A stretch of 64,000 nt of DNA from Nanobdellota archaeon (GTDB lineage: Archaea > EX4484-52 > LFW-46), in contig JAHILE010000048.1 of the NCBI GenBank assembly GCA_018897155.1, positions 1,385-65,384 on the forward strand. Direction: 5' to 3'. The notes under the pieces were generated by a model, which worked only from the letters and a program-made list of their open reading frames with translations, was not told where the DNA came from and searched no databases. Below are positions 3,001 through 52,444 of this stretch, one piece after another (the stretch's first letter is position 1; each line of letters opens with the position of its first letter). A program made the translations under genes and the position numbers.

Positions 3001-4090
3001 GCAGCAGCTGCCGGATGGCGGGCAAAAATGCGACTATTCTGTCGGAATTCAAAAATGGAAAGGCGGCACATTCAATGACGTCTGCTACAAAGATGCAAAT
3101 TCAACCGCGTATTCCGTAATTATAAACTCAAGCCTAATGCCGAACATAACAAACCTGCATGACCAGGGATATTTAAGAGGGGACAAGATTCCAATAAATG
3201 TATCTGTAATTGATGATTGCCAGACAGTCGAAAATGCAACAGTTATAAACAGCTTAGTAAATCCGCCAAACACATACTACTGCAGCAAACAAGATAACTG
3301 GGCATGGAACGAAAGCAACGGAACGTATATATGCATATGGGATTCGACAAACAAGCCGTATAAATGGTACAATGTCACGGCAACAGTTTCAAAGAATTAT
3401 TATGTGCAAAGCTCAACACCGGGCACAGACAGGTTCTTCTTAGGCACAACGCCGAAGCTGGATTTCCCTTCAGTAAACCCGACATTCGGCGGATGGGGTG
3501 AGAACCATCAATTCAGCGTGAGGCTGACAAGCCTTGACCTTGCAACAAACAATGTATCCCTCTGGAAAAGCCTTGACAACATTTCATGGAACGTTGTCAA
3601 CTGGCAGTTAGTAAATACACCGGTAAACCAGTGGGTCTACTTCAACGAAAGATTTACTTGCAATGACTACTTGACGCCGCCTTCGGGACGTAATTATTAC
3701 CAGATAAAATCCGCAAGCGTGTTCGGATTCAGCAACGAAACGCCAATACTTAATTTCACTCTCGACTATGACAATATAACCATACCAACATTAGGGGGGA
3801 ACGACAGTGTAAGGAGGCTTGGCACAACAACGGCATTCCTCCAAGCAAGAATCTATGACAGCGATTATGGAGTTTATCAAAATAATACTGCAGGAAATAT
3901 TTGGATAACGTCGGACGGAAATAATTTCAGCTCAAACCAGACGTGCACAACATCAAACGGATATTGCAATATAAATTACGATCCACAATGCGATATATCC
4001 ACAGGAGTGCAAAAATGGAAGCTGGCAGTTGAGGATGCATGCTATCAAAAAGTAAACTCCACAAATGCAACGCTGACTGTCATGGGCCAG
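2..4090 (+). repeat. Protein-level tandem super-repeat (~330 aa / ~990 nt, 4 copies plus a partial one) inside giant gene 1
   Basis: The Trp codons of the GWG motif lie at 512, 1502, 2498 and 3494 (spacing 990-996 nt). Each unit is a GWG..F.V..D Ig-like domain, a domain ending in C-x(16-19)-C (D..C..KY.VG..W.GG..D.CY, seen 5 times including the window edge), and a Cys-containing YNC.W domain. The DNA itself has diverged. Confidence 0.7.
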
Positions 4091-7000
4091 CTATATAGCA
4101 ACCACGTAAATCCGACAACAAATGCAATCATCAACAGAAACACCACAACGCCTTTGAATACCACAGTAATTAATGACTGCAACGGCGCAATTACCGGCGC
4201 CACAATATATTGGTACAATAGCACTCCAAAGCAGATTGCAATAGGATATAATACAACATGGAAGGTTCCTGTAACTTATGCAAAAGGACCTGAAACAATA
4301 ACAACAAACGCAACGCAACAGTACTATGACAACGGAACAAACTCAACACAAGTCTATATATATGGATGGAGTAAGATAAACTACACCAGCCTCTCAAACA
4401 GCTCAAGCTATCTTGCAGGTGAGTATGTTGAATCATATTGCATGGTAATAGATGCCAACACAACTGCATATCTTCAAAATTACAACGTAAGCTATTACAA
4501 AAACGGAAGTTTGCAGACCTCTGCAATGACAAATGAAAACGGAACTGCATTATGGAATTGGTCCACAGCATCTGAAAACTTCGGATGGTATAATATAACG
4601 TGTATAATTTCAAATGATAACGCCCAATACTATACGCCGTCAATTCCGCAAATTGAAAGCAATGTGAGAATAAACAGATCCACGGTTCTTAAGTCCCTAT
4701 CGCTTTCCAACTCATCAATATTCAGGAATGATTCCTATAACCCGTACAAAACAAACATATCAGTAACTATCTATGACGCAGTTATAGGGCCTGCAGACGG
4801 GGCAAACGTCACATTCTATAATTCAACCGAACTTATCGGCAATTGCACGACTAATCCGAGTGGCAACTGCTTCATAACATATAATGCGCCAGACAATTCA
4901 ACTCCGGGAATTTACATAATATATATAAACTCAACCAAGACAGGACTTGAGCCATCCATAACAAATCAGACCAACATCACTGTGACAGGAGTACTATTCA
5001 TAAACATAACACAGCCAGCAAACGATTCGTCGTGGGGTAAATCGACGACGCTCAATGTAACGTCCGATATATGGAATGAAAACGGCTATATTGATAACGC
5101 AACTGTAAATTGGTATATTGATACAAACTATGTTGCAAGCGGACAAAACGCGTCGTTTTCGCTATCGTCGCAAACGCCAGGAAGCAGAAAATTGACCGCG
5201 AATGCAACGAAATCATATTACCAACAGGCAGCGTCAAATATATCCCTAAGAATAAACGGTCTTGCTGACGTAAACTGGTGGTACCCGCCGGACAGCTCTC
5301 TGCAGCCATATCCGGTTCCATTTGAAATACAGTGCCGCGTAACAGACAACACGTCAGCAAGTGTCATTCAGGGATATGATGTCAATTTCTGGTACTGGAA
5401 CGGCTCAAGTTATATCTTCAACGGAACATATGCAACAGATAATTTCGGCATTGCAGGCACTACATGGTATCCGGATTCAAAAGGAAGCATAACCTTCATG
5501 TGCAACATAACTGAGAATACAACAATGTATTATTCGCCGAATATTAAAAGTGCAACTGCAACAATAATGGTGCAGGATACAAACCCGCCGTCAATAACGA
5601 ATACAAGCATACTGCCAAACCAGAGCATTGAAGCAAATCTCAACTCAACAGCAATAACTGCAAATGTTACTGACGATTTAAATGTTTCTTCAGTCATCGC
5701 AAGAATAGTTTTACCCAACAGCAGCGTAATAAACCGAACAATGGCAAATATATCACAAAACATATACACAGTCCAATACCTGCCGCCCATAGGAGGAAAT
5801 TATTCAGTGACAATAATGGCGTGGGATTCGCCGCCCGAAAGCAACTTAAATGCAACGTATGCGGGAAACTTTACTGTATGGGGAAAAATAAACATGACTT
5901 CTGTTCAAACCGATGAAGCAGTAATAAACGGCATAACGCAATCAAACGGGGCACAATTTGTAATTGAAGCCAATGCAACTAATCTCGGGCCTGCAAACGC
6001 GTATAATGTAACACTGACCATGTCTGATTCCCCGCCGGGCGTCTTATCCTACAACACCACGCAATACTCTTGCGGAAACCTCAGCACAGGCCAGAATTGC
6101 TCGCGCGCGTTCCTTGTAACTGTACCCCCGGCAACGCCGCCACAAATAATATATTCAAAAGTCACAACATCCTGGCGCAATCCGGATCTGACGCTTGAAA
6201 ATGTCGAAAATATAACAGACGTAATAATCTCGGCAAATCCAATAATTGATATATATGAGCCATCTCTCATAAACAACACTCCGCATGGAATGACAACCAA
6301 AGCAGGAACATTAACAATAATATCTGCAGGAAACTGGCCTGTTGACAACATAGCCATAAACACCGTGGGCGGAAATCTTGCAACATCATGCCCGGGATGC
6401 AACATCACAATAAGCCAGCCCCTATGGGGAACTCTTCCGGCAGGAAGCAATTTCACAACAGACATAACTGTTGTAGTGCCGTTTGGGCAGCCGCCCGGCA
6501 ACTACTGGACATCCGTGCTTGCATCATCAGATGCCGGCGTTGATTGGATAATCATGAACCTTACGGTTCCGCTCAACACTTCATGGACCAGAAATCCGGC
6601 GACATTCGGAACAATACTCGCACTGGTAAATTCAAGCGATTCAGTAGGCAATATAGTTGCAACGCATATAGGCAACCAAAAGATAGATTTCAAGCTATAT
6701 GAATCACAAAACGGAAGCGCGCTTGTTTCATTTGCTCCGCTGGCATTCACATTAAATGTCCTTTCATCAGTCAATATTTCGCTGAATTACACAATTCCGA
6801 TAAGCCAGACACCGGGCATGTATTACTATCAGCTTCTGATAAGAAACACATCGGCAAATCCGCCGGAATACATAACAGACATGTGGCTGAATGTAACCGA
6901 CACACCGCCGACAATATCAAATGTCATCATTAATCCGATGGGCTATGAGGCGGGCACAGAATACACAAACATAACCGCAAGAATAACAGACAATGTGGCT

Positions 7001-10000
7001 GTGGCGTCAGCATGGATAAACGCGACAAAGCCGAACGGAACAGAATTCATAAAATACTTTGATACAAACGGCCCCGAAGTTTTCACAAACTACAGCGAAA
7101 ATGAAACAGGAATACACAGAATCAGAATATGCGCAAGCGATGTTATGGGGCTTGAAGGATGCACGCAGGAGTATAATGTCAGCGTGATGATGAACACTAC
7201 GCTTTTGGCAGAAACAAACATAACGAATTCATCAATAGGCGGGGTTCTTCTTGCGTCCGGAGTAAATGTTTCGTTCAATTTCAGCATAAGAAATATCGGC
7301 TATTCACGGGCACTGAACGCAAACACCACAATAAGCGTTCCTGAAAACTGGAGCGTAACGGACAGCTTTTTCACTGCCGGAAACATCATAAAAGACAATG
7401 CATATAGCAATACGACAATGCTTCAGATTGCACCCGACTCCATGGGCACATATTACATAAACTTCACATCAAACTGGACAAACTTCGATAATACAACCGA
7501 TTGGAGCCTAACACAAATAAAGATAATTGTGACTTCAAATCCCGCACTGGATGTTATTGATGATCCGCTTACGATGTATGTTGAAAGCGGAAGTTCCGGC
7601 AATTACACATTTGTTTTGAATTCAACCGGAAACGACATTGCACAAAACATACAAATAAACTGCACGGGTGGTATTGCATGCACTGCATTCAACATGTCAC
7701 TCAACCCACAGTACATAGCATCTCTTGTAAAGGGAAATGCTTCAAACATCACCATCAATGCATCTATTCCAGTAGGATATATTCCCGGAGTATATAACGG
7801 CGTGTTAAATGTGTCTTCCGACACATCAAGTATAAAAGCAAACATCTCAGTAATTGTTCCTGCAAACCTTACGTGGAGGCATTCTCCGACATCAATAAAA
7901 ATGGAAGTCGCGGCAGGCACTAACGGAACATTCGGAATTGTGACGGTCTCAAACATAGGCAATCTTCCGGTTGTCTTGCAATCGCTGTCAACCAATACAA
8001 CACTATTCACAGTAAATGCCAGCACAATAAACCTGCCGGTTGGAACTTATTCGACAGTGGCTGTAAACTACACTGCCCCGCTGGTAAGTGCAATTGAAAA
8101 TTATATCGCTTATTTCAGGACAGTCAATTCAACCGCAGTTCCGCAGAACCAGTCGACACTCCTAAATATCACTGTGCAGCCAATATATTTGTATATTGTA
8201 TCGCCAACTACCGCTTCTCCAAAAATAAATGTATCAAGCGGAAACACTGTAGAAACCACAATAAACCTCACCTATTCATTGCAGCCTTTGTATGAAAATG
8301 TGACCTGGGAGATCAATCTTACAAACGAAGGCTCGCTTGTAACCGTGAACACAACATACGCCAACTACTCAAACACAACAAAGCTCTGGACAATAAACTT
8401 TACAGCACCGGCAATAATGGAAGGCGCTGCACACACGCTTATTGCAAAGGCATTCTACTCCACAAAGAACATATCGGTTGAAGGCATTCAGAAAGATGCT
8501 ATTGTGTATGTGGACTCTGCAGCGCCTCTAATATCTCTTTCGGCGCCCACTGCAGCAAACCGCAACTCAATAGTGCCGATATATGTAAACATTACTGATT
8601 CCGGCGGCGTGAGAAACGCATTGCTTGAAATAACAGATCCAAGCAGCCTATTGCAGAGTGTTAATGCAACATTGATGGGTTCTTCCGGAAACTTGTATAG
8701 ATTCAATTATAATTATAGCAATACATCACTCCTTGGAACATATAGAATTGTTGCAAAGGGCTATGACCTTTCAGGAAATATGAACACCACAAATACGACA
8801 TTCGACATATATAATCCGGCTTACATAAGCGGATACCTGCTTGACATAGAAAGCCCGAACAGCACGGCACCAATTCCGGGCAATTTCAGGATGTATAAAA
8901 ATGATACTGGCACGCTTTTGCACAGCTTTGCAACTAACAACATAACAGGATATTACTATCAAAGCGCATTTGTACGAATGTATGATGTTCTTTTAGACGC
9001 CCTAAATGTCAGCATGAAATTCAAGAACTTTAATATGCCGTCAGAAGGAATTACCGATCCCGTATCGCTTGGAAACATACCTTTGTCGCTCATTGGTTCG
9101 GGGCCGCTTAAGGCGGTTTATGTAACAAGCAAAATGAATGCGCAATATATGAATATAACATTCGACTATTCGCCATACATCGGAGTAAGCGCAAATGATG
9201 TGCAGGTTTATTATTGCGGCAACTGGACAAACCAGATTGGATGCACTGGAACGTGGTTCAGGCAAAACAGCTCTGTTGATACGCTCACAAGAACAGTAAT
9301 GCTAAATACTCAGGCATCTGCAGGAGCATATGCCCTATCGCAGTTTATCTGCGGAAACAAAATGTGCGAATCAATTTACGGAGAATCGAATGCAAACTGC
9401 CCGAAAGACTGCCCGATTCCTGAAGGCCAGGAAATACCGCCCATAATAGGCGGCGGAAGCACTAGCGGAGGCGGTGGAGGAGGAGGAGGAGGAGGAGGCA
9501 CTAGCGGAGGCGGCGGAAGCAGCGGCGGAGGCTCTGCAGGAGTTCCTGTCGCAACAATTAAACCGGATAACAGAACAACCACTGACAACGTGCCAATTGA
9601 AATAAAGTCAACCCTGCTTTACATAACGCTTGCTCCTGGAGAGCGGGAAATCCATTCAATAGAAATAAAGAACAACCTAAACGAAATAATAAATTCAAAA
9701 TTAACTGTTGAAGGGCTTGTCTGGGAACTGATAAAAATTGAAAAAACTGATTTCGATTTAGGCCCAAAATCAACCGAAAACGTAAAGATAGAAGCATATG
9801 CGCTTCCATCAACACGGCCCGGAATATATACCGGAGATATTGTTGCAGTAACAGGAAATATGACATACAGGACGCCGATTACAATAAAGATTGAACTAAA
9901 GGAAGAGCCGCTGCTTGACGTAATACTAAAAATGCTTTCAGACATTGTAAGGCCCGGAGACGATGCACAATTCCTTGTAACTATCAAAAACATGGGAGAA

Positions 10001-11467
10001 ACTGCATCTGTAGAAGACATAATAATGAATTATGTTGTGAAAAACCTCCAGGATGGAACTGTTCTGACAACTGATAAAGAAACTCTTGCAGTCAATCAGA
10101 CGCTCACCTATACAAAGACTATAAGAATACCGAATGGTACCGCAGAGGCGCGCTACGTAATTGATGCAAACGCAACTTATGCGAACGGAGTAAAATACGC
10201 CGGCTCTGCTGCGACCTTTGACGTAAGCATGCAGCCATGGCCAGTCATTATTCTGCGAAGGCTATTCACAAGCTGGCTGACGTATATAATATTACTAATA
10301 GTAATTCCGGGAATTTATTTTGGAAGGCGCGCCTACAATGCATATAAGGACAAGAAAGCAAGAGATGCGCGATATATATTCCCGATGGACTACGCCAAGC
10401 TGCCGCAAAAAGGCGATAAAAGCCTGCAGGTTGGAAAGATTGCAGAAACAGACATTAATTCATACCTTGATATCAAGAACCTGACAATGCATTCAATAGC
10501 AGCAGGGGGTACAGGTTCAGGAAAGAGCGTAACTGCAATGGTCACTGCAGAAGAACTTCTCAAGCGCGGAATACCTGTCGTAGTATTCGACCCGACAGCA
10601 CAATGGTCCGGTTTCATCAGGCCATGTAAAGACCCGCACATGATTGAACTTTACGCGAAATACGGCCTCAAGCCGGAGGATGCAAAGGCATTCAAAACAA
10701 ATATAATAGTTGTCAACAGCGCGAACAGCCTTACCGATGATGAAATAGACCTACGCAAATACATGAAACCCGGAGAAATCACAGTATTTATAATGAGCAA
10801 ATTGCGCTCATCAGAACTCGACGCGTTTGTCAGGCGCACTATCCAAAAAATATTCAGCATACAATGGCCTGAGGCAAATACGCTCAAAGTGCTTGTTGTC
10901 TACGACGAAATGCACAGGCTGCTTCCGAAGTACGGAGGCAAAGGCGGATATGTAGAACTTGAGAGAGGGTGCAGAGAATTCCGTAAATGGGGCATCGGCT
11001 TATTCTTGATATCACAAGTCCTCTCAGACTTCAAGGGTTCAATCAGGGCAAACATTGCAAACGAAATACAGCTGCGAACCAAGTACAATGGAGACATAAA
11101 TCGTGTCAAGCAAAGATACGGAACAGACTACGCGCTTCGGGTTGTCAAGCTAACAGTTGGCGCAGGGCTCCTGCAGAACCCGGAATTCAATGAAGGAAAG
11201 CCGTGGTTCATACAGTTCAGGCCGCTGCTTCACGACACAGGCAGGCTGAGCGAAGAAGAGCTTACCACATATACGAACATAAAGCAGAATATCTTGAATA
11301 TGGAAACCAAGATAGCGGCGCTAAAATCGCGAGGTATCGACACATATGATATAGAGCTTGAACTGAATATGGCGCGCGACAAAACAAAACAGGGAATGTT
11401 TAAGATGGCGGAGACCTACATGGAATCAGTTAAAGCAAGGCTGAGTTCCATGGGTGGCGGAGCATAG
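2..11467 (+). CDS. Giant surface protein (>3,800 aa, N-terminus outside window) ending in a TM helix plus cytoplasmic HerA/FtsK-like (DUF87-type) P-loop ATPase domain
   Basis: The frame of ORF 161..11467 stays open back to nt 2. The edge sequence FNPGCTPKYSIGIHGWKGGVTDDSCYVNTNSS is the same Cys-pair module seen in later repeats. Beta-rich repeat modules, with N-x-S/T roughly every 10 aa in sampled stretches. Gly-run hinge, then hydrophobic helix WPVIILRRLFTSWLTYIILLIVIPGIYFG (10238-10324). Then Walker A AAGGTGSGKS (10499-10528), Walker B VLVVYDEMH (10889-10915) and REFRKWGIGLFLISQ. Confidence 0.85.
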   Translation, partial: FNPGCTPKYSIGIHGWKGGVTDDSCYVNTNSSIYSLNITTAPLIAAIEQPNDAMFRRDIDNITLRGNVTDDCGLVNGSTTSLSAYNGQSYQNCTAGMINDEGAGWYNCTLTPVSPEWSVGQYGKYNTSMYASKQYYNISNITTMSPSFNLTDPPEIKDMTWTSSNPVTSGWGTRHTFTVKVKDDEAGYDTDTVYLWKWHTSTGWALINSTTVINNPLFTTVSFEQRFTCADIGTNYYKFNVSDRWGNTNETQNASFTIGKDAVFVQLIPASNVDREGPATTNLKVRVRDTDNDSVAFNWIPEGYSGKMFVTTNGSGSNVWTVANGSMYTDSGSYLSFDFNPECAPLYKVGAQDWRGGMDNDTCFVDTNSSSGTFTITGQLKEGIDLPPYGSVYAVGTNVTIRTNSTTDCSELVNDSAISIQLSSPLSVWENCSATINNEGNGYYNCSWNTEFHYGGYYNVQMNSSRTNYYFNTTTWNSQFYMNNTPPNVENFSVSPESEGWGSVYTYRAEIYDAQKDNITCALYVNTSESTGWVLKNSTTIETQPAQGRANCTLSVSNFACGEMGTDNSYKFQIYDGTNLLNTSVISGPNLTEDSVSISYFYGNNSVVNRSGTETTRFIVSALDTDRGSIPVLTGSNIKFWVTKNGAVYDAGTDIATNSSGYANYDFDPTCSPTKYDVGPEYWAAGIIDGCYVATNLSQNLTTTVIGSLINTIQIPDIGTEFLRGENITIKSNSVATIQSDCVPEGLDGVNNEIIFHNENGINNYSCVTGPGTEGYYECTRNTTDMKARWYNTTMRSWMQYYHNGTSLNASHFFVKTLPVLTNETAITNPGGWGETFYFKVNLTDEDLDNVTVNLYARDTAGGSWGGAKNSTIISAPINQTVVIYWNTVPYCAIGTWEYYFDATDTHNPLDIVSTTPKNFTIEQDDVQIALVSGDNSFAWRNGTYNTTFTLNITDTDRKNITIGDSSSRFWVTVNASNPGSFDAGKDTMSSGGLITYYFMQQLPDGGQKCDYSVGIQKWKGGTFNDVCYKDANSTAYSVIINSSLMPNITNLHDQGYLRGDKIPINVSVIDDCQTVENATVINSLVNPPNTYYCSKQDNWAWNESNGTYICIWDSTNKPYKWYNVTATVSKNYYVQSSTPGTDRFFLGTTPKLDFPSVNPTFGGWGENHQFSVRLTSLDLATNNVSLWKSLDNISWNVVNWQLVNTPVNQWVYFNERFTCNDYLTPPSGRNYYQIKSASVFGFSNETPILNFTLDYDNITIPTLGGNDSVRRLGTTTAFLQARIYDSDYGVYQNNTAGNIWITSDGNNFSSNQTCTTSNGYCNINYDPQCDISTGVQKWKLAVEDACYQKVNSTNATLTVMGQLYSNHVNPTTNAIINRNTTTPLNTTVINDCNGAITGATIYWYNSTPKQIAIGYNTTWKVPVTYAKGPETITTNATQQYYDNGTNSTQVYIYGWSKINYTSLSNSSSYLAGEYVESYCMVIDANTTAYLQNYNVSYYKNGSLQTSAMTNENGTALWNWSTASENFGWYNITCIISNDNAQYYTPSIPQIESNVRINRSTVLKSLSLSNSSIFRNDSYNPYKTNISVTIYDAVIGPADGANVTFYNSTELIGNCTTNPSGNCFITYNAPDNSTPGIYIIYINSTKTGLEPSITNQTNITVTGVLFINITQPANDSSWGKSTTLNVTSDIWNENGYIDNATVNWYIDTNYVASGQNASFSLSSQTPGSRKLTANATKSYYQQAASNISLRINGLADVNWWYPPDSSLQPYPVPFEIQCRVTDNTSASVIQGYDVNFWYWNGSSYIFNGTYATDNFGIAGTTWYPDSKGSITFMCNITENTTMYYSPNIKSATATIMVQDTNPPSITNTSILPNQSIEANLNSTAITANVTDDLNVSSVIARIVLPNSSVINRTMANISQNIYTVQYLPPIGGNYSVTIMAWDSPPESNLNATYAGNFTVWGKINMTSVQTDEAVINGITQSNGAQFVIEANATNLGPANAYNVTLTMSDSPPGVLSYNTTQYSCGNLSTGQNCSRAFLVTVPPATPPQIIYSKVTTSWRNPDLTLENVENITDVIISANPIIDIYEPSLINNTPHGMTTKAGTLTIISAGNWPVDNIAINTVGGNLATSCPGCNITISQPLWGTLPAGSNFTTDITVVVPFGQPPGNYWTSVLASSDAGVDWIIMNLTVPLNTSWTRNPATFGTILALVNSSDSVGNIVATHIGNQKIDFKLYESQNGSALVSFAPLAFTLNVLSSVNISLNYTIPISQTPGMYYYQLLIRNTSANPPEYITDMWLNVTDTPPTISNVIINPMGYEAGTEYTNITARITDNVAVASAWINATKPNGTEFIKYFDTNGPEVFTNYSENETGIHRIRICASDVMGLEGCTQEYNVSVMMNTTLLAETNITNSSIGGVLLASGVNVSFNFSIRNIGYSRALNANTTISVPENWSVTDSFFTAGNIIKDNAYSNTTMLQIAPDSMGTYYINFTSNWTNFDNTTDWSLTQIKIIVTSNPALDVIDDPLTMYVESGSSGNYTFVLNSTGNDIAQNIQINCTGGIACTAFNMSLNPQYIASLVKGNASNITINASIPVGYIPGVYNGVLNVSSDTSSIKANISVIVPANLTWRHSPTSIKMEVAAGTNGTFGIVTVSNIGNLPVVLQSLSTNTTLFTVNASTINLPVGTYSTVAVNYTAPLVSAIENYIAYFRTVNSTAVPQNQSTLLNITVQPIYLYIVSPTTASPKINVSSGNTVETTINLTYSLQPLYENVTWEINLTNEGSLVTVNTTYANYSNTTKLWTINFTAPAIMEGAAHTLIAKAFYSTKNISVEGIQKDAIVYVDSAAPLISLSAPTAANRNSIVPIYVNITDSGGVRNALLEITDPSSLLQSVNATLMGSSGNLYRFNYNYSNTSLLGTYRIVAKGYDLSGNMNTTNTTFDIYNPAYISGYLLDIESPNSTAPIPGNFRMYKNDTGTLLHSFATNNITGYYYQSAFVRMYDVLLDALNVSMKFKNFNMPSEGITDPVSLGNIPLSLIGSGPLKAVYVTSKMNAQYMNITFDYSPYIGVSANDVQVYYCGNWTNQIGCTGTWFRQNSSVDTLTRTVMLNTQASAGAYALSQFICGNKMCESIYGESNANCPKDCPIPEGQEIPPIIGGGSTSGGGGGGGGGGGTSGGGGSSGGGSAGVPVATIKPDNRTTTDNVPIEIKSTLLYITLAPGEREIHSIEIKNNLNEIINSKLTVEGLVWELIKIEKTDFDLGPKSTENVKIEAYALPSTRPGIYTGDIVAVTGNMTYRTPITIKIELKEEPLLDVILKMLSDIVRPGDDAQFLVTIKNMGETASVEDIIMNYVVKNLQDGTVLTTDKETLAVNQTLTYTKTIRIPNGTAEARYVIDANATYANGVKYAGSAATFDVSMQPWPVIILRRLFTSWLTYIILLIVIPGIYFGRRAYNAYKDKKARDARYIFPMDYAKLPQKGDKSLQVGKIAETDINSYLDIKNLTMHSIAAGGTGSGKSVTAMVTAEELLKRGIPVVVFDPTAQWSGFIRPCKDPHMIELYAKYGLKPEDAKAFKTNIIVVNSANSLTDDEIDLRKYMKPGEITVFIMSKLRSSELDAFVRRTIQKIFSIQWPEANTLKVLVVYDEMHRLLPKYGGKGGYVELERGCREFRKWGIGLFLISQVLSDFKGSIRANIANEIQLRTKYNGDINRVKQRYGTDYALRVVKLTVGAGLLQNPEFNEGKPWFIQFRPLLHDTGRLSEEELTTYTNIKQNILNMETKIAALKSRGIDTYDIELELNMARDKTKQGMFKMAETYMESVKARLSSMGGGA
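9449..9540 (+). repeat. GGN trinucleotide microsatellite encoding a Gly/Ser hinge
   Basis: Encodes GGGSTSGGGGGGGGGGGTSGGGGSSGGGSAG. Seven consecutive in-frame GGA codons at 9476-9496. Confidence 0.9.
10380..11467 (+). other. HerA/FtsK/VirB4-like P-loop NTPase domain (C-terminal, cytoplasmic part of giant gene 1)
   Basis: Walker A GGTGSGKS, Walker B VVYDEMH, then RGCREFRKWGIGLFLISQVLSDF. This block order is typical of DUF87/HerA-type ATPases. It follows the TM helix and a basic stretch (GRRAYNAYKDKKARDAR). Confidence 0.7.
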
Positions 11468-11567: not shown

Positions 11568-14150
11568 ATGGCGGAAAAAAAGAGCAAAAAGACAAACGAA
11601 CTTGACGAGATGAGCCTCGACGAGCTGATAGAAAGATGCAAGCAGATAAAAGAGCTTCTTGCGAACCTTGAGAACCAGTACAGATCTGCGGAAATTACTG
11701 AACAAAGCTACAAGCAGACAAAGGACGCAAACACAAAAAAGCTCGGTGAAGTAAGAAAGCGCCTTGAAGACTGGGGAATTAAGGACGAAGATATTCCTGC
11801 GCCACTTTCCGCTGCGCAAAAGCCTGCCGCGAGCACTTCCGCCGCTCCAGCATCAGCACTTTCGCAGCCTCAAGCCTCCGCAACGCCAGCCGCTACAACA
11901 CTATCGTCAGCAGCCCAAAAACCCGCACCGGTTCCGCCGCCGGTACAAGCGCCGGTTTTTACTCCGCCGATAGAAACACAAGAAACAAACGAATCTGCCC
12001 AAGAAACGCCGGTTGCCCCGCCAGCACCGAGCACTCCAATATCATTCACGCAAAAACTGAAACAACAATTTATGCCGTCTTCCCAAAGGTCGCCGGAAGA
12101 TCCCGCATATATTTCGCAGACTGTGCAGCTTGAGCTCCAAAAATTCCAGGAAAAATTCAATGTGGATCTTGAGCGCATAAAGGCATCAATCGATGCTATT
12201 AAAGAGACACGCGCATCATCTGAAGAAAGAATACATATGCTGACTGAAGGAATTGCCGAACTCAGGTCAAACGTATTTCAGCGCGAGGCAAATTTAAAAG
12301 AGCAGGAAATGAAGCTTACTAAACTGAAGGAAATGGTTGATGACGTCGAGCCGCAAAAAATAAGCAAAGAATTCTCAAAACGCGACAAGACATCTTCGGA
12401 CATTGAAGTCCGGCTTGAAAAGCTGGAAGTAAAAACAAACGACCTCATAAAGACAGTTAATGAAATAAATGCTTTGCTCAAAAGCATTGGAGGGCTTGAA
12501 AATGTGGCAGATGTAAACCATGAAGTTACGAAAAAATTCGAAGAGATACGCGAAATAAACACCGCCACAGAAAGGCTGTCTTCAAAAGTCGAAAAGATAT
12601 TCATAGATATAAACAAGCGGCTTGAAAAATTCAACATATACGAAGCCAGGCAGGACAATATAAGCGAAATTGTCAACGACATGATACGAAACTTCGACGC
12701 ACTTTCGCTGAAGTTTGAATCCTATGCGGAAAAAAAGGATCTGACCACTACCAAAGAAGACATCACAGACATCCAAAAAAAAATGGAAGAGCTGAAAAAG
12801 ACGCTGAAAAGGGTAGTGCCATTTGCAGAGGCGCAAGTTCCGGAAGAAATCCAGGCGCTTCAGACTGAGCGGGAAGATATCGAATCGCTTCTTTCCTCAA
12901 TAGAATACGAACATGAAAAAAAGCAAATCACCGACGATGAATACGCATCAATAAGGGAAAAGAATGGCGTACGGCTCAAAGAAATAAAGCAGAAAATCGC
13001 AAACGCTGTGAAAAAAATCGCGCCTGCCGATGAAGAAAAGGATGCTGCGTCAAATACGAAAAATCAGAACCCATCATTGGTTGATGCGATGTCAAAAGAC
13101 ATGGACGCAATCAAAACTGCGGCAAAAAAGAATGCTGAAGAATCCAAAAAGAAAGATGAAGCTGCCAAAAAAGAAGCTGAAGAAGCAGCTGAAACCGAAA
13201 ATGAAAAAAATGTTGAAGAAACAACTGATGAAGAAAATGATGAGTCCGACAAAGAAAACGAAGCTGAAAGCCCTGACGCAAAAGAGAAAAAAGAAACGCA
13301 GGGAAAAAAGCATTCAAATGCAAAATCGGCTAATCCAAAAAGTTATGAAAATGCACCTGAAAAAACAGAGATAATTAATGAAGCGGGAAAAGAACCGCTG
13401 CCGGAAATAAAAAAAGAAATGATGGAACAAACAGTTGCAGAAGAAAATAAAGATGAAACGTTTGCGCAACATGTGCCCGTTCCCGCCGCCGATACAAAAC
13501 ATAAAGAAAAATGGCGCGCCAAATCCAAAAAGGCGAAACATAACAAACAGAAAATAGTTCGAAAGGCACGCGAAACAAAAGAGAAAAATGAACAAGTGGA
13601 GCGCGCAACGCGAATGTTTTTGCGCGCAAATGAAATTGAGCGTCCGAATGCTGTTCGCGCAAAAAAAGCAGCTTTAAAAAAGAAACTAAAGAAAAAAGTG
13701 GCGCCATCAAAACAAAACAAAATGCATGCAAAAAGACATGCACATCATGCAGCCAAATCTACCGCGAAAAAAACAATAGCATCTTCGCGTGCAGTGAGGC
13801 TCGAAAATCGCGCAATTGCAAAAGAGAAAATAAAAACAGCCACAAATAACGCAGCCCAAACATCAAGAAAATCTCTTCGCTCATCCCACGGCCTGTTTGT
13901 TCCTGCAAAAGAGATTACAGATATAAAAAGTGTTATATCAGCCGGCGCGCAGAATGCGCAAACGCCAAAAAAACAGGATATTTCGCCGCAGAAAAATGCC
14001 GAAGCTGCAAAAGAAATAGCAAACGCGCCGGCAAAAAAAGGCGAAAATGAAACAAATCCACTGCTTGCAGAACTCACTGAATCGCTGAAGCAAGGGCTTA
14101 TTTCAAAAGAGACTTACGAAAATACAAAGAAGCTGCTAATGATGGGTTAG
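11568..14150 (+). CDS. Cytoplasmic coiled-coil / low-complexity (K/E/A/P-rich) protein with SHOCT-like helical motifs
   Basis: 860-aa ORF with no hydrophobic segment. Ala/Pro-rich stretch, long heptad-like K/E region and a Lys-rich tail. C-terminus is LTESLKQGLISKETYENTKKLLMMG. GGAG lies 11 nt upstream of the ATG. The stop is 17 nt before the next gene. Confidence 0.7.
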   Translation: MAEKKSKKTNELDEMSLDELIERCKQIKELLANLENQYRSAEITEQSYKQTKDANTKKLGEVRKRLEDWGIKDEDIPAPLSAAQKPAASTSAAPASALSQPQASATPAATTLSSAAQKPAPVPPPVQAPVFTPPIETQETNESAQETPVAPPAPSTPISFTQKLKQQFMPSSQRSPEDPAYISQTVQLELQKFQEKFNVDLERIKASIDAIKETRASSEERIHMLTEGIAELRSNVFQREANLKEQEMKLTKLKEMVDDVEPQKISKEFSKRDKTSSDIEVRLEKLEVKTNDLIKTVNEINALLKSIGGLENVADVNHEVTKKFEEIREINTATERLSSKVEKIFIDINKRLEKFNIYEARQDNISEIVNDMIRNFDALSLKFESYAEKKDLTTTKEDITDIQKKMEELKKTLKRVVPFAEAQVPEEIQALQTEREDIESLLSSIEYEHEKKQITDDEYASIREKNGVRLKEIKQKIANAVKKIAPADEEKDAASNTKNQNPSLVDAMSKDMDAIKTAAKKNAEESKKKDEAAKKEAEEAAETENEKNVEETTDEENDESDKENEAESPDAKEKKETQGKKHSNAKSANPKSYENAPEKTEIINEAGKEPLPEIKKEMMEQTVAEENKDETFAQHVPVPAADTKHKEKWRAKSKKAKHNKQKIVRKARETKEKNEQVERATRMFLRANEIERPNAVRAKKAALKKKLKKKVAPSKQNKMHAKRHAHHAAKSTAKKTIASSRAVRLENRAIAKEKIKTATNNAAQTSRKSLRSSHGLFVPAKEITDIKSVISAGAQNAQTPKKQDISPQKNAEAAKEIANAPAKKGENETNPLLAELTESLKQGLISKETYENTKKLLMMG

Positions 14151-14167
14151 ATACAAGATACAATTCA

Positions 14168-17100
14168 ATGGGATTCAAAATGAAACAAAGAGTTATTTTG
14201 TTTGCAATGATTGCAGCGATAGCTCTGCTTTTATCACCTCTACTTGTCAATATTGCCAATGCGCCGACAGACCCTTACTGGTTCGATACGTCGTGGCATT
14301 TCAGGATTGCGCTGGCAATCAACAATACAGATTATGCGCGAGATAACTGGCCGATTGAACATGATATGAATTTCACCGCATTGATAACACAAACTGGAAA
14401 AAGCGGCACTTTCGATTACAATTCCATACGCATTTACGCGCATAACTCAACCGGCGGCGTAATGCACCCGATGAAATACCAGTTCGACAACGCGTCGGAC
14501 TCAAGTGCAGCATCAAATGCCGCAGGAACTCTTGTATTCCTCTTGAATGGCACAACAGCGGCAAATGAAATCCGGTATTTCTACGTTTATTTCGACACAA
14601 TTGAAAATGGCGCGAAAAGCCCGCCGTCATTTTCCACAAACCTCAACTATTCATGGGATGGCAAAGAAGCGCATGTGAATAACAGCATGCTGCGATGGAA
14701 AATAGATACGATGCGAAATGAAAATACTTCTGGATTATATGATGCAAAAGGAAACTCAGCAACCATATTTACGCAGGCAACTTCAAACAGAACAATCGAA
14801 TACATACAATATTCAAACGGAACAAATAATTTTTCTTTTGATTTTAGGAACAATGCGACGTTTATTTCAGGACCTATAATGCTGAGGCTCGAACAAGCCG
14901 GAAATGAAATGCTTTGGAACAACCCCGACGCAATAACTGGAGCCGGATGGATGAAAAAGACGTACGTATTTTATGAAAATACAAAATGGCTTAAGATAAT
15001 TCAAAACTTCACAAATATCGGCGGCTCTTCCATAACAAGAAACTCAACAAACGGAGGCGCGCTTTCCGTGAATGAACTCATAGACAACAGCTTACTACCG
15101 CCTTTTGGAAACGAAAGCAATCCGATGTCCAGATACGGCGCTTCTGACGGCAGCAGAGGTGTCGGAATAATAAATGTGAATTCCAGCAGCAACGCGAATT
15201 ACTCCGCAGTTTACGATGCGGCTCTTGACAGGATAGGGATTAATCTTAACAGCACAACACTGGCTCCGCAGGAATCCATAATACAAACAACAGTAATGCA
15301 ATTCGATGATGTCCAGTACAGCGATGACCAAAACCTTCTTCCGTTAAGAAACCAGCTGCTTTACCCTCCAATAATTACGCAAGACAATCCGCAATACATA
15401 ACATTTATGCTGGAATCAAAAACAAACTACACCATCCACAACAGAAACGAAAGCGTGCTGATTACTGGAAATACTACATTCGATCCGTACAACATCAGTT
15501 CATCAATGAATGCCACTCTTGATATGGGAACGGCGGATTCTGCGGACGATATAACAATAGTTTTGTATGACGACGGAAGTGCTGAACATGGCGATGCAAC
15601 TGCATCAGACACTATATTCTCCAACTACTTCAACTTATCCGAGGATAGCGTATTTGGAACATGGAATATCACCATAAACGCGTATGATATTTCAGACATT
15701 CTTCTGAACCAAAGCATCACAGCATTCAATGTAACAAATGAATACAGTACAAGCATAAATATAAGCAATCCTGACGGGTTTGTCGACCGCATAATAAACA
15801 CTACACTAAATGTGAAAAATAAAAGATACGACACGTTTATTCCGGGCGCAACGCTTAACTGCAGCTACAGCGGCTCCGGCGAGCTGACAAATATAACAGA
15901 CTACGGCAATGGCACATACCTCTTGAATTTTACAGCCCCTTCAATAACCGGCTCATATCTTCTTAATTGCAGCGCGATAAAATTCAACAACACTGGATGG
16001 GCCGCCCAATGGTTCTATACTGAAACCAGCGAGACAATGCTATTACTGAACATAACTCCGGAAAACCACACAACAAGCAATATAACGCGAGCAACAGGCA
16101 ATTCATTTATAATTAATCTTAATGCCACAGACATTGGAGGCGCAAATGCAAAATATACGAATATGACTCTTTCGCTGCCTCAAAACATCACTGCAAATGC
16201 AACAAACGCAAGCTGCGGAACTGTAATAATGGGAACCTCTTGCCTGAGGGATTTCAATATAACAATAGCCAACGGAACCTCGCCCGGAAACTATACACTA
16301 AATACAAGCGTGGTGTGGGAGAACCCGGACACTTCAAAAAATACAACAAATTCATCAGTTACCATATACGTCTTATCAAATCCTCAAATTAATATAACTC
16401 CAGCAAATATTTCCGGTAACGCTCCTGACGGGAAAACGGTTACCATAGGAACATTTACGGTATGGTCTATAGGAAATGACAACATCACAAACACTACGTT
16501 TAATGTGACCGGAATTCCGGACTTTTCAGTGTCTTTCAGCCCGCAAAACATATCCGGCCTTGCAGCCGGAAGCTCACAGCCGGTTTCAGTAAACGTGACT
16601 GTTCCATCAGATTATGCGCCGGGAAACTATACTGGAACAATAAATGCCAGCACAATAAACGATGGATGGAAAACAATAGAGCTTAATGTAGCCGTGCCTT
16701 CAACAACAAACCTATCGATAAACATAACGCCTCAAAACTACACATCCCGAAACATATCTTATTCAAACAGCGAATCATTCAACATAACTATCAATACTAG
16801 TAACACGGGCGTAACCGGCGCAAAAGACGTAAACATAAGCCTATCGCTTCCGCAAAATCTCAGCGCAAATTCGACAATTGAAAACTGCGGCAACATCAGC
16901 ACAAATTCATTCTGCATAAATCAATTCAACATAACAATAAGCAATCAAACAGCTCCGGGAAATTATACATTCAACATAACGGCAACATGGAAAAATCCCG
17001 ATTTGTCGATAAATTCAACAACCACCAATATGACCGTTGCTGTGCTATCCAATCCACTATTAAATGTTTCAGAAGGCGGCATATCAACAATACTCTTTGA

Positions 17101-20100
17101 CAATACGACAGCATATGCGGGCAATTTCACAACATACTCGCTTGGAAATGACAACCTGACAAACATCACGTTCAATGTTACCGGACTCTCGAACTTTACA
17201 TTCACCTTTTTGCCGGCAAACATCTCAACTTTAGGAGTAAACAGCTCACAGCTTGTCTCTGTAAATGTTTCTGTTCCGTTCGCATATTCTCCAGGTAACT
17301 ATACCGGAACAATAAATATGAGTTCGATTAATGACGGCTGGAAGGTTATTGAAATAAATGTAAGTGTCCTTATAAGACGCGAATGGAGCATTTCTCCGAC
17401 ACATTGCGAAAGGGCGGAAAATCCCGACACCGGAACAGTATGCTCTGTAGCCGTATCCAACACAGGAAACGCACCCATAAACTTTACTGTCAATCCTTCC
17501 GGAATAAATTATACTTCGGCAAATGAAACCAATTTCACAGTGGCTAAGAATTCAACACACTCGCTCGTATTTCTTTATAATGTCTCAAACATCACAAAGG
17601 ATTTTTTCTATTCCTTTTATACCATTAACGCCACAGACGCGGATGCATCTCCGCAGTATAGCAACTTCAACATAACCTTAATACCCTATGTTATACCGTT
17701 GTTTTCAGTGAACGTCCTGCCGAACGAAACCGAGCAGAGAAAAAATGTCGAGATAATGGTAAATGTTACCGACCGCTCCACAACCGGAATAAACTGGACT
17801 CAAATGAATATAACGCTTCCAAACGGCACGCTTGAAACGCATAACCTGACGCGTATAGACGTAAACGGAACTTTCAGCCAATGGTATTTTAATTATTCAG
17901 GAATTATGAATATCTCCAATCTGACAAACATGAGCGGCAATTTATCAAACATCACATTAAATTACACGGGAAGCACAGCATTGCGCGGCACCTATAATAT
18001 ATCCATCACATCACAGGATAATACTGGAGTTGCTGGAGATGTAAATGGAAGCTTCAAAATACATGCAAAAATGCTTATTGGATTCCTTCCGGGATCAACA
18101 AAATATTATCAGGGCTCAACAGGTTCTCTTTATTATGCTGCAACTGATTCTGAGGATAATGCGCTTAGCGGAGCAAATGTAACTATAAAGATAAAAGACT
18201 CTTCAGGAAACTTGACTTATCTCCAAACATTCTCAACAGGATCAAGCGGACAAATACTTCCAACCCCGACATTCCTTTTGCCAAATGATGCTAAAGTCGG
18301 GCAATACAACATTTCTGCATACACAACATATTATGATGCGATTGCAGACAAAATATTAAATGCAACTAACAATGCATCATTCAGCCTGCAATCCGGTTCA
18401 TCTGGCGGTGGAGGCGGACTTGCCGCATATGTGGACACTGCTGTTGTCTGGTACCCTGACAATGTGATGCGCTTTGAAATGTGGTTCTCATATGCAGGAA
18501 ATGTGACTGATCCAGACAATATGACTTTGTTTGTGTATGATCCTGCGAGCAACCTGTATTTTAACATAAGCCTTACAAACGCAAACAGATCATCCGCAGG
18601 ATTGTATAATTACAGGTATGCTATGCCGATTAATACTGCTTCAGGATATTACTTCGCCATCCTCACAGCATCAAAAGAAGGCTTTGTAAGCCAGATGGTA
18701 AAGCCTTTCAGAGTTGCAAAAGGCGGCCCCTATGACGTAAAGCTGACAGTATTGCCGCCTCTTGAAGTGTCGCGGCAAGACTACCTTAGCTTTGAAGTGC
18801 TTGTGGAAAACATGGGAGAAGTCACGCAGGACGTTTATATCGATTATTGGACGTCCTATGAAAACAATACATATTATTATAGTGGAGAAGCCATACTGAC
18901 GCCCGTGGGCGTGAATATAACAATAATAAGAACGGCATACATCTTTTCCAATCAGCCTCTTGGGATGAACACGCTAAACTTAAAAGTGACATACGACAGC
19001 GTACAGGCACCGATACTTTTGAGCGCCAATTTTGAAGTAGTTGATGATTATATAAACATACCTCCTCCTCCGCCACAACCGCCTCCGCCAGACTATGACT
19101 ATGAAAGTGGAGGGGGTGGTGGGGGAGTTATTGAAAGAATAATTTATTTGCCGCCTGAAGAACTTCCGGAAACCGATGCGGCTGGAATTGGCAAAAGATC
19201 AAGCATAGAAATAGAGAGCTATAACAAAGAAATAAACATAGTGCGAGGATGGACATCGCTTGAAAGCGTAAAAGTGAAAAATACAGGCAACACAACACTG
19301 AAAAACATAACGCTTTTGTTATCCGGAATACCTTCTTCATGGTTCAAAATAACTCCAAAATATTATGAAAGCCTAACTTCCGGAAACAGCACAATATTTT
19401 TGATAGAATTCAAAATACCAAATAATGCCGAGTCTGGAACATACAACATCGTTTTCACAGCATCATCTATTGAAAGAACAACTGAAAAAGTCGGCCGCCT
19501 GATAATTTTCACATCGATTGAAGAACTCGTAAATCAAGAGATTATAAACCTTAAAATAGATGTAGAAAAGCTTGAGGAAGACACAGACTATTCCGAACGG
19601 CTTGGAAGAAATATTTCGCAAATCCGGGATATTATAGCATCTGCGCGAGCCCAAATAAAACTAGCTGAAGACAATGCAAAAAAGAAGGTATTTGATGACG
19701 CGCTCCTTAACACGCAAACAGCGTCAGGCCTGATAAAGCGCGGAAAACGCCTGCTTGAGTCCCTTGTAACCGAAGAGCCATCAGTCTCGCAGAAACCAAC
19801 ACGAAATGTCTGGCTTATGGGGCTTGAAGCGCTTTTAATAATTATTTTAATAGCTGCAATAGCGCTATGGACGATACGGTCGCGCGGGAAGCTCAAATGG
19901 GAAAACATAAAGGCATACCTCAAGAAGAAAACCGAAAAGAGCGCGACAAATGAAGAATTGAAGAAAGAGCTTGTTGCAGAAAAGGAAAAAATAGCCCGAA
20001 TGACAAAACTCCTTGAAAGCGAGCTTAAAGAAGGCATAATAACGCAGAACGCATATAATGAGCTGAAGAAGAGAAATGATGAAAAGCGAGCTAAGATAGA

Positions 20101-20122
20101 GCAGCAAATCAAAAAGATTTAA
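14168..20122 (+). CDS. Giant (1,984 aa) surface protein: signal/anchor helix, sequon-saturated Ig/CARDB(NEW3)-like repeats, Pro/Gly hinge, C-terminal TM helix, coiled-coil cytoplasmic tail
   Basis: N-terminus MKQRVILFAMIAAIALLLSPLLVNIANA. I hand-counted about 23 N-x-S/T in one ~215-aa module. Hinge PPPPPQPPPPDYDYESGGGGGG (19061-19126). TM helix VWLMGLEALLIIILIAAIALWTI (~19807-19875). The tail ends LKEGIITQNAYNELKKRNDEKRAKIEQQIKKI. Confidence 0.85.
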   Translation: MGFKMKQRVILFAMIAAIALLLSPLLVNIANAPTDPYWFDTSWHFRIALAINNTDYARDNWPIEHDMNFTALITQTGKSGTFDYNSIRIYAHNSTGGVMHPMKYQFDNASDSSAASNAAGTLVFLLNGTTAANEIRYFYVYFDTIENGAKSPPSFSTNLNYSWDGKEAHVNNSMLRWKIDTMRNENTSGLYDAKGNSATIFTQATSNRTIEYIQYSNGTNNFSFDFRNNATFISGPIMLRLEQAGNEMLWNNPDAITGAGWMKKTYVFYENTKWLKIIQNFTNIGGSSITRNSTNGGALSVNELIDNSLLPPFGNESNPMSRYGASDGSRGVGIINVNSSSNANYSAVYDAALDRIGINLNSTTLAPQESIIQTTVMQFDDVQYSDDQNLLPLRNQLLYPPIITQDNPQYITFMLESKTNYTIHNRNESVLITGNTTFDPYNISSSMNATLDMGTADSADDITIVLYDDGSAEHGDATASDTIFSNYFNLSEDSVFGTWNITINAYDISDILLNQSITAFNVTNEYSTSINISNPDGFVDRIINTTLNVKNKRYDTFIPGATLNCSYSGSGELTNITDYGNGTYLLNFTAPSITGSYLLNCSAIKFNNTGWAAQWFYTETSETMLLLNITPENHTTSNITRATGNSFIINLNATDIGGANAKYTNMTLSLPQNITANATNASCGTVIMGTSCLRDFNITIANGTSPGNYTLNTSVVWENPDTSKNTTNSSVTIYVLSNPQINITPANISGNAPDGKTVTIGTFTVWSIGNDNITNTTFNVTGIPDFSVSFSPQNISGLAAGSSQPVSVNVTVPSDYAPGNYTGTINASTINDGWKTIELNVAVPSTTNLSINITPQNYTSRNISYSNSESFNITINTSNTGVTGAKDVNISLSLPQNLSANSTIENCGNISTNSFCINQFNITISNQTAPGNYTFNITATWKNPDLSINSTTTNMTVAVLSNPLLNVSEGGISTILFDNTTAYAGNFTTYSLGNDNLTNITFNVTGLSNFTFTFLPANISTLGVNSSQLVSVNVSVPFAYSPGNYTGTINMSSINDGWKVIEINVSVLIRREWSISPTHCERAENPDTGTVCSVAVSNTGNAPINFTVNPSGINYTSANETNFTVAKNSTHSLVFLYNVSNITKDFFYSFYTINATDADASPQYSNFNITLIPYVIPLFSVNVLPNETEQRKNVEIMVNVTDRSTTGINWTQMNITLPNGTLETHNLTRIDVNGTFSQWYFNYSGIMNISNLTNMSGNLSNITLNYTGSTALRGTYNISITSQDNTGVAGDVNGSFKIHAKMLIGFLPGSTKYYQGSTGSLYYAATDSEDNALSGANVTIKIKDSSGNLTYLQTFSTGSSGQILPTPTFLLPNDAKVGQYNISAYTTYYDAIADKILNATNNASFSLQSGSSGGGGGLAAYVDTAVVWYPDNVMRFEMWFSYAGNVTDPDNMTLFVYDPASNLYFNISLTNANRSSAGLYNYRYAMPINTASGYYFAILTASKEGFVSQMVKPFRVAKGGPYDVKLTVLPPLEVSRQDYLSFEVLVENMGEVTQDVYIDYWTSYENNTYYYSGEAILTPVGVNITIIRTAYIFSNQPLGMNTLNLKVTYDSVQAPILLSANFEVVDDYINIPPPPPQPPPPDYDYESGGGGGGVIERIIYLPPEELPETDAAGIGKRSSIEIESYNKEINIVRGWTSLESVKVKNTGNTTLKNITLLLSGIPSSWFKITPKYYESLTSGNSTIFLIEFKIPNNAESGTYNIVFTASSIERTTEKVGRLIIFTSIEELVNQEIINLKIDVEKLEEDTDYSERLGRNISQIRDIIASARAQIKLAEDNAKKKVFDDALLNTQTASGLIKRGKRLLESLVTEEPSVSQKPTRNVWLMGLEALLIIILIAAIALWTIRSRGKLKWENIKAYLKKKTEKSATNEELKKELVAEKEKIARMTKLLESELKEGIITQNAYNELKKRNDEKRAKIEQQIKKI
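16046..17389 (+). repeat. Tandem duplication of a ~224-aa (672-nt) double-domain module in giant gene 2
   Basis: Copy 1 starts LNITPENHTTSNITRATGNSF (16046) and copy 2 starts INITPQNYTSRNISYSNSESF (16718). Both end ...PGNYTGTIN.S.INDGWK.IE.NV.V. A related single module lies in giant gene 1 at ~5890-6560 (...PPGNYWTSVLASSDAGVDWIIMNLTVP). Confidence 0.75.
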
Positions 20123-52308: not shown

Positions 52309-52366
52309 TAATCGCGAAGCTCGAAGCTTTTTTGTTTTGCAATGCATAAAACATATGCAAAACAAA

Positions 52367-52440: not shown

Positions 52441-52444
52441 ATAG

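Follow-up and report, generated by a model that had tools for sequence, protein, structure and literature searches.

Giant proteins named SPEARE were first described in the Nanohaloarchaeota by Hamm et al. in 2019 as mostly extracytoplasmic polypeptides of up to 8,553 amino acids (aa), in which the ectodomain contains one or more laminin-G domains besides other adhesion domains, a transmembrane (TM) helix lies close to the C-terminus, and the cytoplasmic region, which is conserved, was read as restriction-enzyme-like; similar sequences were recognized in Woesearchaeota, Aenigmarchaeota, Micrarchaeota and Altiarchaeales (PMC6642349). Four such genes constitute 4% of the SG9 genome, and proteomics showed that a SPEARE protein is made in Ca. 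Nanohaloarchaeum antarcticus (PMC6642349). Reva et al. in 2023 re-analysed the SPEAREs together with two new giants of 9,409 and 8,880 aa, described an architecture of Ig-like repeats, a TM helix, a cytoplasmic 'VirB4/TraG-like ATPase' and a terminal coiled coil, found no endonuclease, and proposed a type IV-like effector 'straw' (PMC10266531). SPEARE-like proteins of up to 12,127 aa have also been reported in the EX4484-52 lineage (PMC8470020). Here we analysed a stretch of 64,000 nucleotides (nt), called the window below, from contig JAHILE010000048.1 (assembly GCA_018897155.1) of a Nanobdellota archaeon of this lineage, in which a giant gene encodes a large ectodomain, a single TM helix and a HerA-type ATPase in one open frame (Table 1). 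The window protein belongs to the already described SPEARE family and adds no new kind of system.

The homology to the published proteins is direct. The tail of the window protein is 46% identical to SG9 AQV86_02330 (E-value = 2e-123) and 44% identical to a 623-aa protein of Nanohalococcus, and its last ~620–650 aa, which comprise two Ig domains, the TM helix, the ATPase and the terminal helices, align with the C-termini of the 8,553-aa SG9 protein and the 9,409-aa SVXNc_0300 at 35–36% identity; for the ATPase, the identity is 43% over 403 aa with the former and 42% with the latter. The first-pass annotation of this DNA, made from the sequence without database searches, knew of no characterised example of such a fusion, a statement that does not stand, as the architecture had already been published (PMC6642349, PMC10266531); none of the members is characterised biochemically. 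The complete relative P0253 (LFCJ01) was considered as an SG9 protein and rejected, LFCJ01 being cited for soda-lake brine metagenomes.

The published giants NAR1_1133 of Nha. antarcticus, SVXNc_0300 of Ca. Nanohalococcus occultus and the 8,553-aa SG9 protein share with the window protein a giant ectodomain, two Ig-like domains, a C-terminal TM helix, the ATPase and the helices behind it, and, as in the window, they belong to DPANN symbionts in which a coiled-coil protein is encoded downstream. The window differs from the Nanohaloarchaeota in three respects. It comes from another phylum, its best named matches being in Aenigmatarchaeota; its ectodomain is unrelated in detail, with no laminin-G, protease or toxin-like region detected; and, whereas an ATPase paralogue of ~625 aa follows the giant gene in Nanohaloarchaeota, no second ATPase paralogue exists in the window, where a membrane protein of ~2,000 aa with NEW3 and MG2 domains is linked to the giant gene instead. 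The ~625-aa paralogue has a signal peptide, Ig domains, a TM helix and the same ATPase, and at two nanohaloarchaeal loci (L083, 10001–11872; L085, 10001–11878) the giant gene overlaps it by 4 nt. From identity, topology and family taken jointly, there is very little doubt that the product of the giant gene is a type I membrane protein and an Aenigmatarchaeota-type member of the SPEARE family.

The frame of the giant gene is free of stops from window base 2 up to the stop codon at 11465–11467, and none interrupts it between the ectodomain and the ATPase. The first-pass annotation had reported the absence of any stop or frame change there, and the sequence features that it quoted (the hydrophobic stretch WPVIILRRLFTSWLTYIILLIVIPGIYFG, the basic stretch GRRAYNAYKDKKARDAR, both Walker motifs and REFRKWGIGLFLISQ) were all located in the frame it gave. 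Because the frame is already open from base 2, the gene does not start at the ATG at 161, where the open reading frame (ORF) tool lists it; the preceding 53 codons are in frame, without stops, of the same sequence type, and homologous. The actual start, like the signal peptide that is expected there, lies outside the window. At a G+C content of 41.5%, about 6% of the codons in a random frame are stops, and 3,821 stop-free codons thus have a probability of ~1e-104 by simple arithmetic, which excludes a chance origin of the giant open frame.

The fusion of ectodomain and ATPase is conserved among the relatives. A GTDB scan with one genome per species gave 80 loci, or 82 in total with two further loci, L001 and L002. 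Of 43 loci with the full 10-kb upstream flank, 41 kept the ATPase frame open to the edge, with 3,289 or more codons before the TM helix; where the flanks were shorter, it was open to the contig end in 32 of 37. The junction of ectodomain and ATPase accordingly lies in an open frame in 73 of the 80 species-level loci, and a single high-scoring segment pair (HSP) runs across the ectodomain, the TM helix and the ATPase in 69 of the 82 loci. In one locus (L009) a single HSP covers residues 38–3817 in one frame at 41.6% identity, and an 86%-identical orthologue (L003) is also a giant form. When 1.84 billion cluster representatives were scanned in full, 364 clusters were obtained at E-values up to 1e-30; the new proteins among the best 150 of these 364 had a median length of 1,653 aa, 65 being at least 2,000 aa, 21 at least 4,000 aa and the longest 7,878 aa, and in those representatives the ATPase was always C-terminal or nearly so. 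Complete relatives measure 4,619–7,878 aa, and N-terminal signal peptides were found on complete members, e.g. P0132, P0133, P0136, P0140, P0152, P0212 and P0253. Short forms of 550–700 aa, with a signal peptide, one or two Ig-like domains, a TM helix and the same ATPase, also exist, and the giant is therefore a type I membrane ATPase that has been expanded at its N-terminus. Some genomes of the GTDB scan have both forms, giant and short, on separate contigs (L023, L074).

Two observations could suggest an assembly chimera or a missed frameshift, the ATPase being really a separate gene behind the giant one. The ATPase was called as a 591-aa gene in L001 and as a 400-aa gene in L002, in each case behind large ORFs, and a word-index protein search listed only members of up to 709 aa, many of them 'partial'. 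However, both loci are collinear with the whole window protein; the frame changes of L001 sit exactly on two 100-N scaffold gaps, and those of L002 (JGI 3300050342, Ga0527077_0545; 6000–10000) are numerous indel frameshifts inside well-conserved domains that divide the gene into seven called genes (one of 8,615 aa plus fragments). A separate ATPase gene behind the giant gene was therefore rejected for these loci. A stand-alone ATPase family, which was the impression given by the word-index search, was rejected as well, since giants appear in the full representative scan and in the genome loci; lengths taken from the word-index search alone would mislead. Given also the published complete genomes with the same fusion, we attach almost no weight to a chimera, and a chimeric joint is excluded as far as sequence comparison can exclude it. 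The pattern in L002 reflects either an error-rich assembly or a decaying copy, and a similar frameshift pattern was seen in L029, a 1.1-Mb contig. The first-pass annotation was thus correct in treating the ATPase as truly fused to a giant ectodomain, and the orthologous fusions that it proposed to look for were found across dozens of Aenigmatarchaeota species.

A Kyte-Doolittle scan recognized only one hydrophobic segment among all 3,821 residues. The 29-aa hydrophobic helix of the first-pass annotation is present, with a strictly hydrophobic core that is shorter, at ~21–27 residues. Lysine and arginine account for six of the 15 residues after the helix vs one of the 15 before it. Residues 1–3419 contain 204 N-x-S/T sequons (6.0 per 100 aa) and 51 Cys, vs one sequon and two Cys in the 380 residues after the helix, which makes the sequon asymmetry 23-fold. 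Archaeal surface proteins are N-glycosylated, and the positive-inside charge together with the sequon asymmetry therefore places the long part outside the cell and the P-loop domain inside, which bears out the orientation proposed in the first-pass annotation. In the AlphaFold model of the cytoplasmic tail, the TM helix runs on unbroken into the basic stretch. An S-W-[IL]-T-Y motif at the outer end of the TM helix (window 10259–10290) is kept in the giants (the window protein, P0077, P0140 and P0152), and P0128 has the variant S-W-I-P-Y; the motif might be relevant to helix packing in an oligomer.

The assignment of the cytoplasmic domain rests on Pfam, profile and structure comparisons. The Pfam models for DUF87, the central domain of HerA, and for HerA_C were matched above their curated cut-offs (43.7 vs 23.2 bits and 29.5 vs 22 bits, respectively), whereas FtsK_SpoIIIE (PF01580; 17.9 bits, cut-off 24) fell below and was matched in the Walker A region only. 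T4SS-DNA_transf (PF02534) passed at 23.0 vs 20.1 bits, with a match restricted to profile positions 31–80 of 468, again the Walker A region. NCBIfam gave weak matches to HerA, CedD, TraC and TraD, all far under the equivalog cut-offs (43.9 vs 800 for HerA), and a profile built from 91 family sequences, when searched against the PDB sequences, recovered eight HerA entries, YjgR and, weakly, DotL (E-value = 0.005). An AlphaFold model of the tail built on the same 91-sequence alignment has a mean predicted local distance difference test score (pLDDT) of 94.3 and a predicted template modelling score of 0.90, and consists of a helix (tail residues 13–43; the TM helix and the basic stretch), a RecA-like core (45–338) and three C-terminal helices (339–364, 370–384 and 388–406). 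In a Foldseek search of the PDB with this model, ranks 1–49 were all occupied by HerA hexameric translocases, the best being Sulfolobus HerA (4d2i; E-value = 1.7e-13), and the first non-HerA fold was the coupling protein TcpA at rank 50. The profile check that the first-pass annotation had envisaged for its HerA/FtsK-superfamily P-loop ATPase thus places the domain in the HerA clade.

With HerA, the window ATPase shares the RecA-like core, the Walker A and B motifs and R-E-x-R-K-[FW]-G, and HerA proteins are its top matches in both sequence and fold. The alignment with Sulfolobus HerA begins only at HerA residue ~117, and the query upstream of that point consists of nothing other than the TM helix and the basic stretch; the counterpart of the HAS-barrel is therefore missing, and the TM helix takes its place. 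Unlike HerA, the window ATPase is anchored in the membrane and has neither a NurA nor an effector partner, and its NCBIfam HerA score is the very low one given above. Among the 91 family members, the G and K of Walker A, the D-E of Walker B, D-P-T-x-Q-W and R-E-x-R-K-W-G are invariant, and catalysis is therefore under selection. In the C-terminal helices, D371, E375 and Y394 are invariant in a 20-sequence alignment (A1); Y394 remains invariant in the 91-sequence alignment (A2), where D371 and K382 come close to invariance. The cytoplasmic domain is also the best-conserved part of the protein, with 64% identity vs 42% overall in the comparison with L009, in agreement with Hamm et al. (PMC6642349). 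By profile and by model, the tail is a HerA-clade domain of the FtsK-HerA superfamily and is neither a HerA orthologue nor a VirB4.

This assignment bears on two older or simpler readings of the domain. According to the original SPEARE reading, the cytoplasmic part is restriction-enzyme-like and degrades imported DNA (PMC6642349), and a weak match to ResIII was indeed obtained here, PF04851 being listed for some relatives too. The match, however, is sub-threshold (18.8 bits, under the cut-off of 22.5) and covers the shared P-loop region only, and the reading is contradicted by the fold: the model and the Foldseek search account for the 380-aa tail fully by the HerA-type core and three helices, leaving no nuclease domain, and no endonuclease was found by Reva et al. 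either (PMC10266531). We regard this function as very improbable. Equally remote, in our estimate, is an anti-virus defence module of the SIR2-HerA or DUF4297-HerA type that became membrane-anchored by happenstance. Defence-system HerA proteins (SIR2-HerA and DUF4297-HerA) are found, along with HerA-NurA, among the top 49 Foldseek matches, and a PADLOC search also matches HerA; the scores, however, are far below the family level, no NurA and no effector gene (SIR2, DUF4297 or a nuclease) is fused or adjacent to the giant gene, and the defining feature is a giant adhesin ectodomain in obligate symbionts, with no relatives of the family on IMG/VR viral contigs.

Reva et al. suggested that the giants act as a type IV-secretion-like injector, in which a VirB4/TraG-like ATPase pushes protein effectors through a giant 'straw' into the host (PMC10266531). 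The window ATPase has the superfamily and the P-loop core in common with VirB4, and some signals point to type IV secretion systems (T4SS): family members match the T4SS-related Pfam models PF02534, PF12846 and PF10412, TraC, TraD and DotL were matched weakly, and TcpA follows the HerA folds. In contrast to VirB4, however, the giant protein has no Pfam match to the VirB4 N-terminal domain (PF03135), and VirB4 was found neither in the PDB profile search (E-values up to 0.01) nor among the top 50 Foldseek folds. In addition, no other T4SS component lies near the gene within the window, and an ectodomain of beta-sandwich repeats resembles an adhesin-like rod and not a conduit. An injector of this type is therefore unlikely in our view.

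The closest match for how the giant protein might work is provided, by analogy, by the membrane-anchored DNA pumps. FtsK/SpoIIIE, Streptomyces TraB, the coupling proteins (TrwB/VirD4/TcpA) and the Ced ATPase likewise have an N-terminal membrane anchor followed by a ring-forming P-loop motor, and they act at a cell-cell or septal interface. The window ATPase shows weak matches to TraD, TraB, CedD and T4SS-DNA_transf. The pumps differ from it in having two to four TM helices and no large ectodomain. The fold of the window ATPase is nearer to HerA, and neither a gamma domain nor an all-alpha domain was seen, the latter not being evident in the AlphaFold model; FtsK/SpoIIIE in particular is set apart by the single TM helix of the window protein and by its PF01580 score below the cut-off.

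The ectodomain that lies inside the window comprises at least 3,414 residues. The 'repeat ectodomain' of the first-pass annotation agrees with a self-comparison, in which at least four repeats of ~330 aa were recognized within residues 1–1412 and more repeats appeared at offsets of ~300 and ~437 aa. Laminin-G gave no Pfam match at E-values up to 0.1 in the part of the ectodomain within the window, the N-terminus of the protein being beyond it, and no protease or toxin family was found by Pfam across ~3,400 aa of ectodomain, the sole family being NPCBM_assoc. The lack of a protease here, and of a nuclease in the tail, agrees with what Reva et al. concluded for the type proteins (PMC10266531), and the protease/nuclease feature of the SPEARE description is therefore probably not truly defining. 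A Gly-rich linker of 31 residues splits the bulk of the ectodomain from the two membrane-proximal Ig-like domains. It is preceded by a Cys motif with the pattern C-G-N-x-x-C-E-x(9)-C-P-x-D-C, and a similar motif exists in the short form P0106. In the L001 scaffold, the position of the linker coincides with a 100-N assembly gap (9800–9900), and Gly-rich linkers may be sites where assemblies of these giant genes break. The membrane-proximal pair was modelled by AlphaFold as all-beta with a pLDDT of 96.1, its best Foldseek matches being tandem FnIII/macroglobulin-type domains, e.g. RbmA, and both domains are common to the 550–700-aa short forms and the published giants of SG9 and Nanohalococcus.

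Downstream of the giant gene, two further genes are conserved. A homologue of the coiled-coil protein of the window is encoded directly downstream of the ATPase on the same strand in 78 of the 82 loci, short-form loci included. The protein belongs to no Pfam family, has merely coiled-coil-type matches to SMC, JetC and LmuB, and gave five word-index matches; its similarity to the protein encoded downstream of the SG9 genes is weak (22% over 200 aa; E-value = 8e-13), with an E-P-x-K-I-x-K-x-F-x-K motif in common. No mention of this partner was found in the papers of Hamm et al. and Reva et al. (PMC6642349, PMC10266531). The second gene, a homologue of which lies downstream in 55 loci and is near full length in ~35 of them, encodes a 1,984-aa protein composed of a signal peptide, four NEW3 domains, MG2, a Pro/Gly linker, a membrane-proximal beta domain, a TM helix and a short cytoplasmic coiled-coil tail. 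At its C-terminal end, this protein is laid out like the giant, with a low-complexity linker, a beta domain, a TM helix and a cytoplasmic coiled coil. Judged by the comparison of loci, the giant gene, the coiled-coil gene and the gene for the ~2,000-aa membrane protein form a conserved three-gene unit.

To our knowledge, all characterised ATPases of the HerA/FtsK clade are rings that thread DNA, with VirB4 and EssC serving protein export. By analogy, a ring motor is probable here too: the cytoplasmic domains would assemble into a ring, probably a hexamer. Because the TM helix stands in for the HAS-barrel and the core follows after only ~15 helical residues, this ring would lie flat against the membrane on the cytoplasmic side, with its channel directed at the membrane. 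About six giant ectodomains would be bundled above the ring and would bind the host cell, ATP hydrolysis would move a polymer at the contact between symbiont and host, and the coiled-coil protein could be an adaptor or scaffold. The polymer would most likely be DNA, in view of the HerA fold and the precedents of FtsK/SpoIIIE, Streptomyces TraB, the coupling proteins and CedB. Taken as a whole, a SPEARE-type protein that acts as a membrane-anchored ring motor at the host contact is in our judgement the best explanation, with a probability of roughly 0.4; the narrower claim that DNA or another polymer is translocated at the contact is tentative. Several points weigh against this explanation. With a single TM helix per protomer, a hexamer would contribute six, which is few for a pore of DNA size; no conserved polytopic membrane protein was found beside the gene; and the conserved unit contains no gene for a nuclease, relaxase, pilin or other DNA-handling protein. 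The short forms carry the same ATPase, and the motor therefore needs no giant ectodomain. In the proteomics of Nha. antarcticus, the ectodomain and the TM/cytoplasmic part were found in different size fractions, so that both parts may be separated after synthesis (PMC6642349).

The single TM helix per protomer and the lack of a conserved channel partner or DNA enzyme in the unit favour another reading, in which the ATPase ring and the coiled-coil proteins would cluster, anchor or remodel the adhesins into an attachment organelle, as an inside-out control of adhesion, and no substrate would cross the membrane. Such a scaffold or assembly motor agrees with the near-universal linkage of the coiled-coil gene, with the second type I protein and its cytoplasmic coiled-coil tail, and with the conserved C-terminal helical bundle on the ATPase. 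However, the characterised rings of the clade all thread a polymer, conservation of the catalytic and HerA-type motifs is complete, and an interaction among the three proteins is conjectural; we consider an assembly motor somewhat unlikely, although more probable than an injector. The ring motor at the host contact can also be extended into a self-contained machine for polymer transfer from cell to cell, in which six adhesin stalks would hold the host and the HerA-type ring would pull host DNA or another polymer into the symbiont. This extension is doubtful; such a machine could include the coiled-coil partner and the second membrane protein, and could be distinct from type IV secretion, Ced/Ted and FtsK.

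DPANN archaea are symbionts attached to other archaea that do without most biosynthesis of their own, and the family touches the question of how material passes from host to symbiont. Since a ring-motor ATPase and a host-binding ectodomain are combined in one polypeptide encoded by a very large gene, the family is a prime candidate for the contact machinery. What is new here is the assignment to the HerA clade rather than to VirB4-like proteins or restriction enzymes, the near-universal in-frame and collinear conservation across dozens of Aenigmatarchaeota species, and the near-constant coiled-coil partner gene together with the linked gene for the ~2,000-aa membrane protein. If a polymer is really transferred, this could account for the feeding on hosts by organisms that lack nucleotide synthesis, and the results sharpen the questions for the cultivable nanohaloarchaeal systems.

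Table 1. Features of the giant SPEARE-type gene and its two downstream neighbours, in window coordinates
Feature	Position	Strand	Basis or remark
Giant SPEARE-type gene, 5'-cut by the window edge	2..11467	+	at least 3,821 codons plus stop
Extracellular region, Asn/Ser/Thr-rich, with repeats and one NEW3/NPCBM_assoc beta-sandwich	2..9349	+	Pfam (beta-sandwich)
Cys motif CGNKMCESIYGESNANCPKDCP, then Gly-rich linker GGGSTSGGGGGGGGGGGTSGGGGSSGGGSAG	9350..9541	+	sequence
Two membrane-proximal beta-sandwich (Ig/FnIII-like) domains	9590..10231	+	AlphaFold, Foldseek, alignment
Single TM helix (residues 3415–3441), hydrophobic stretch WPVIILRRLFTSWLTYIILLIVIPGIYFG	10244..10324	+	Kyte-Doolittle scan
Basic juxtamembrane stretch GRRAYNAYKDKKARDAR, cytoplasmic side	10322..10372	+	lysine/arginine count
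HerA-clade RecA-like ATPase core, without HAS-barrel	10370..11251	+	Pfam, PDB profile, Foldseek
Walker A, AAGGTGSGKS	10499–10528	+	
Motif FDPTAQWSGF	10586–10615	+	
Walker B, VLVVYDEMH	10889–10915	+	
REFRKWG motif REFRKWGIGLFLISQ	10973–11017	+	
Three C-terminal helices ('coiled coil' in the literature), conserved to the last residues	11252..11455	+	
Coiled-coil partner, 860 aa, cytoplasmic, without TM helix; conserved core ~residues 170–500	11568..14150	+	
Type I membrane glycoprotein, 1,984 aa, without ATPase	14168..20122	+	translation, Pfam

The remainder of the window is that of an archaeal chromosome, with genes for TBP, A-type ATP synthase subunit D and GatE. At 26871–29033 there is a 720-aa ORF whose Pfam matches are sub-threshold and unrelated, and at 52366–52517, on the reverse strand, the genes for tRNA-Phe(GAA) and tRNA-Asn(GTT) are adjacent to each other, only 2 nt apart.

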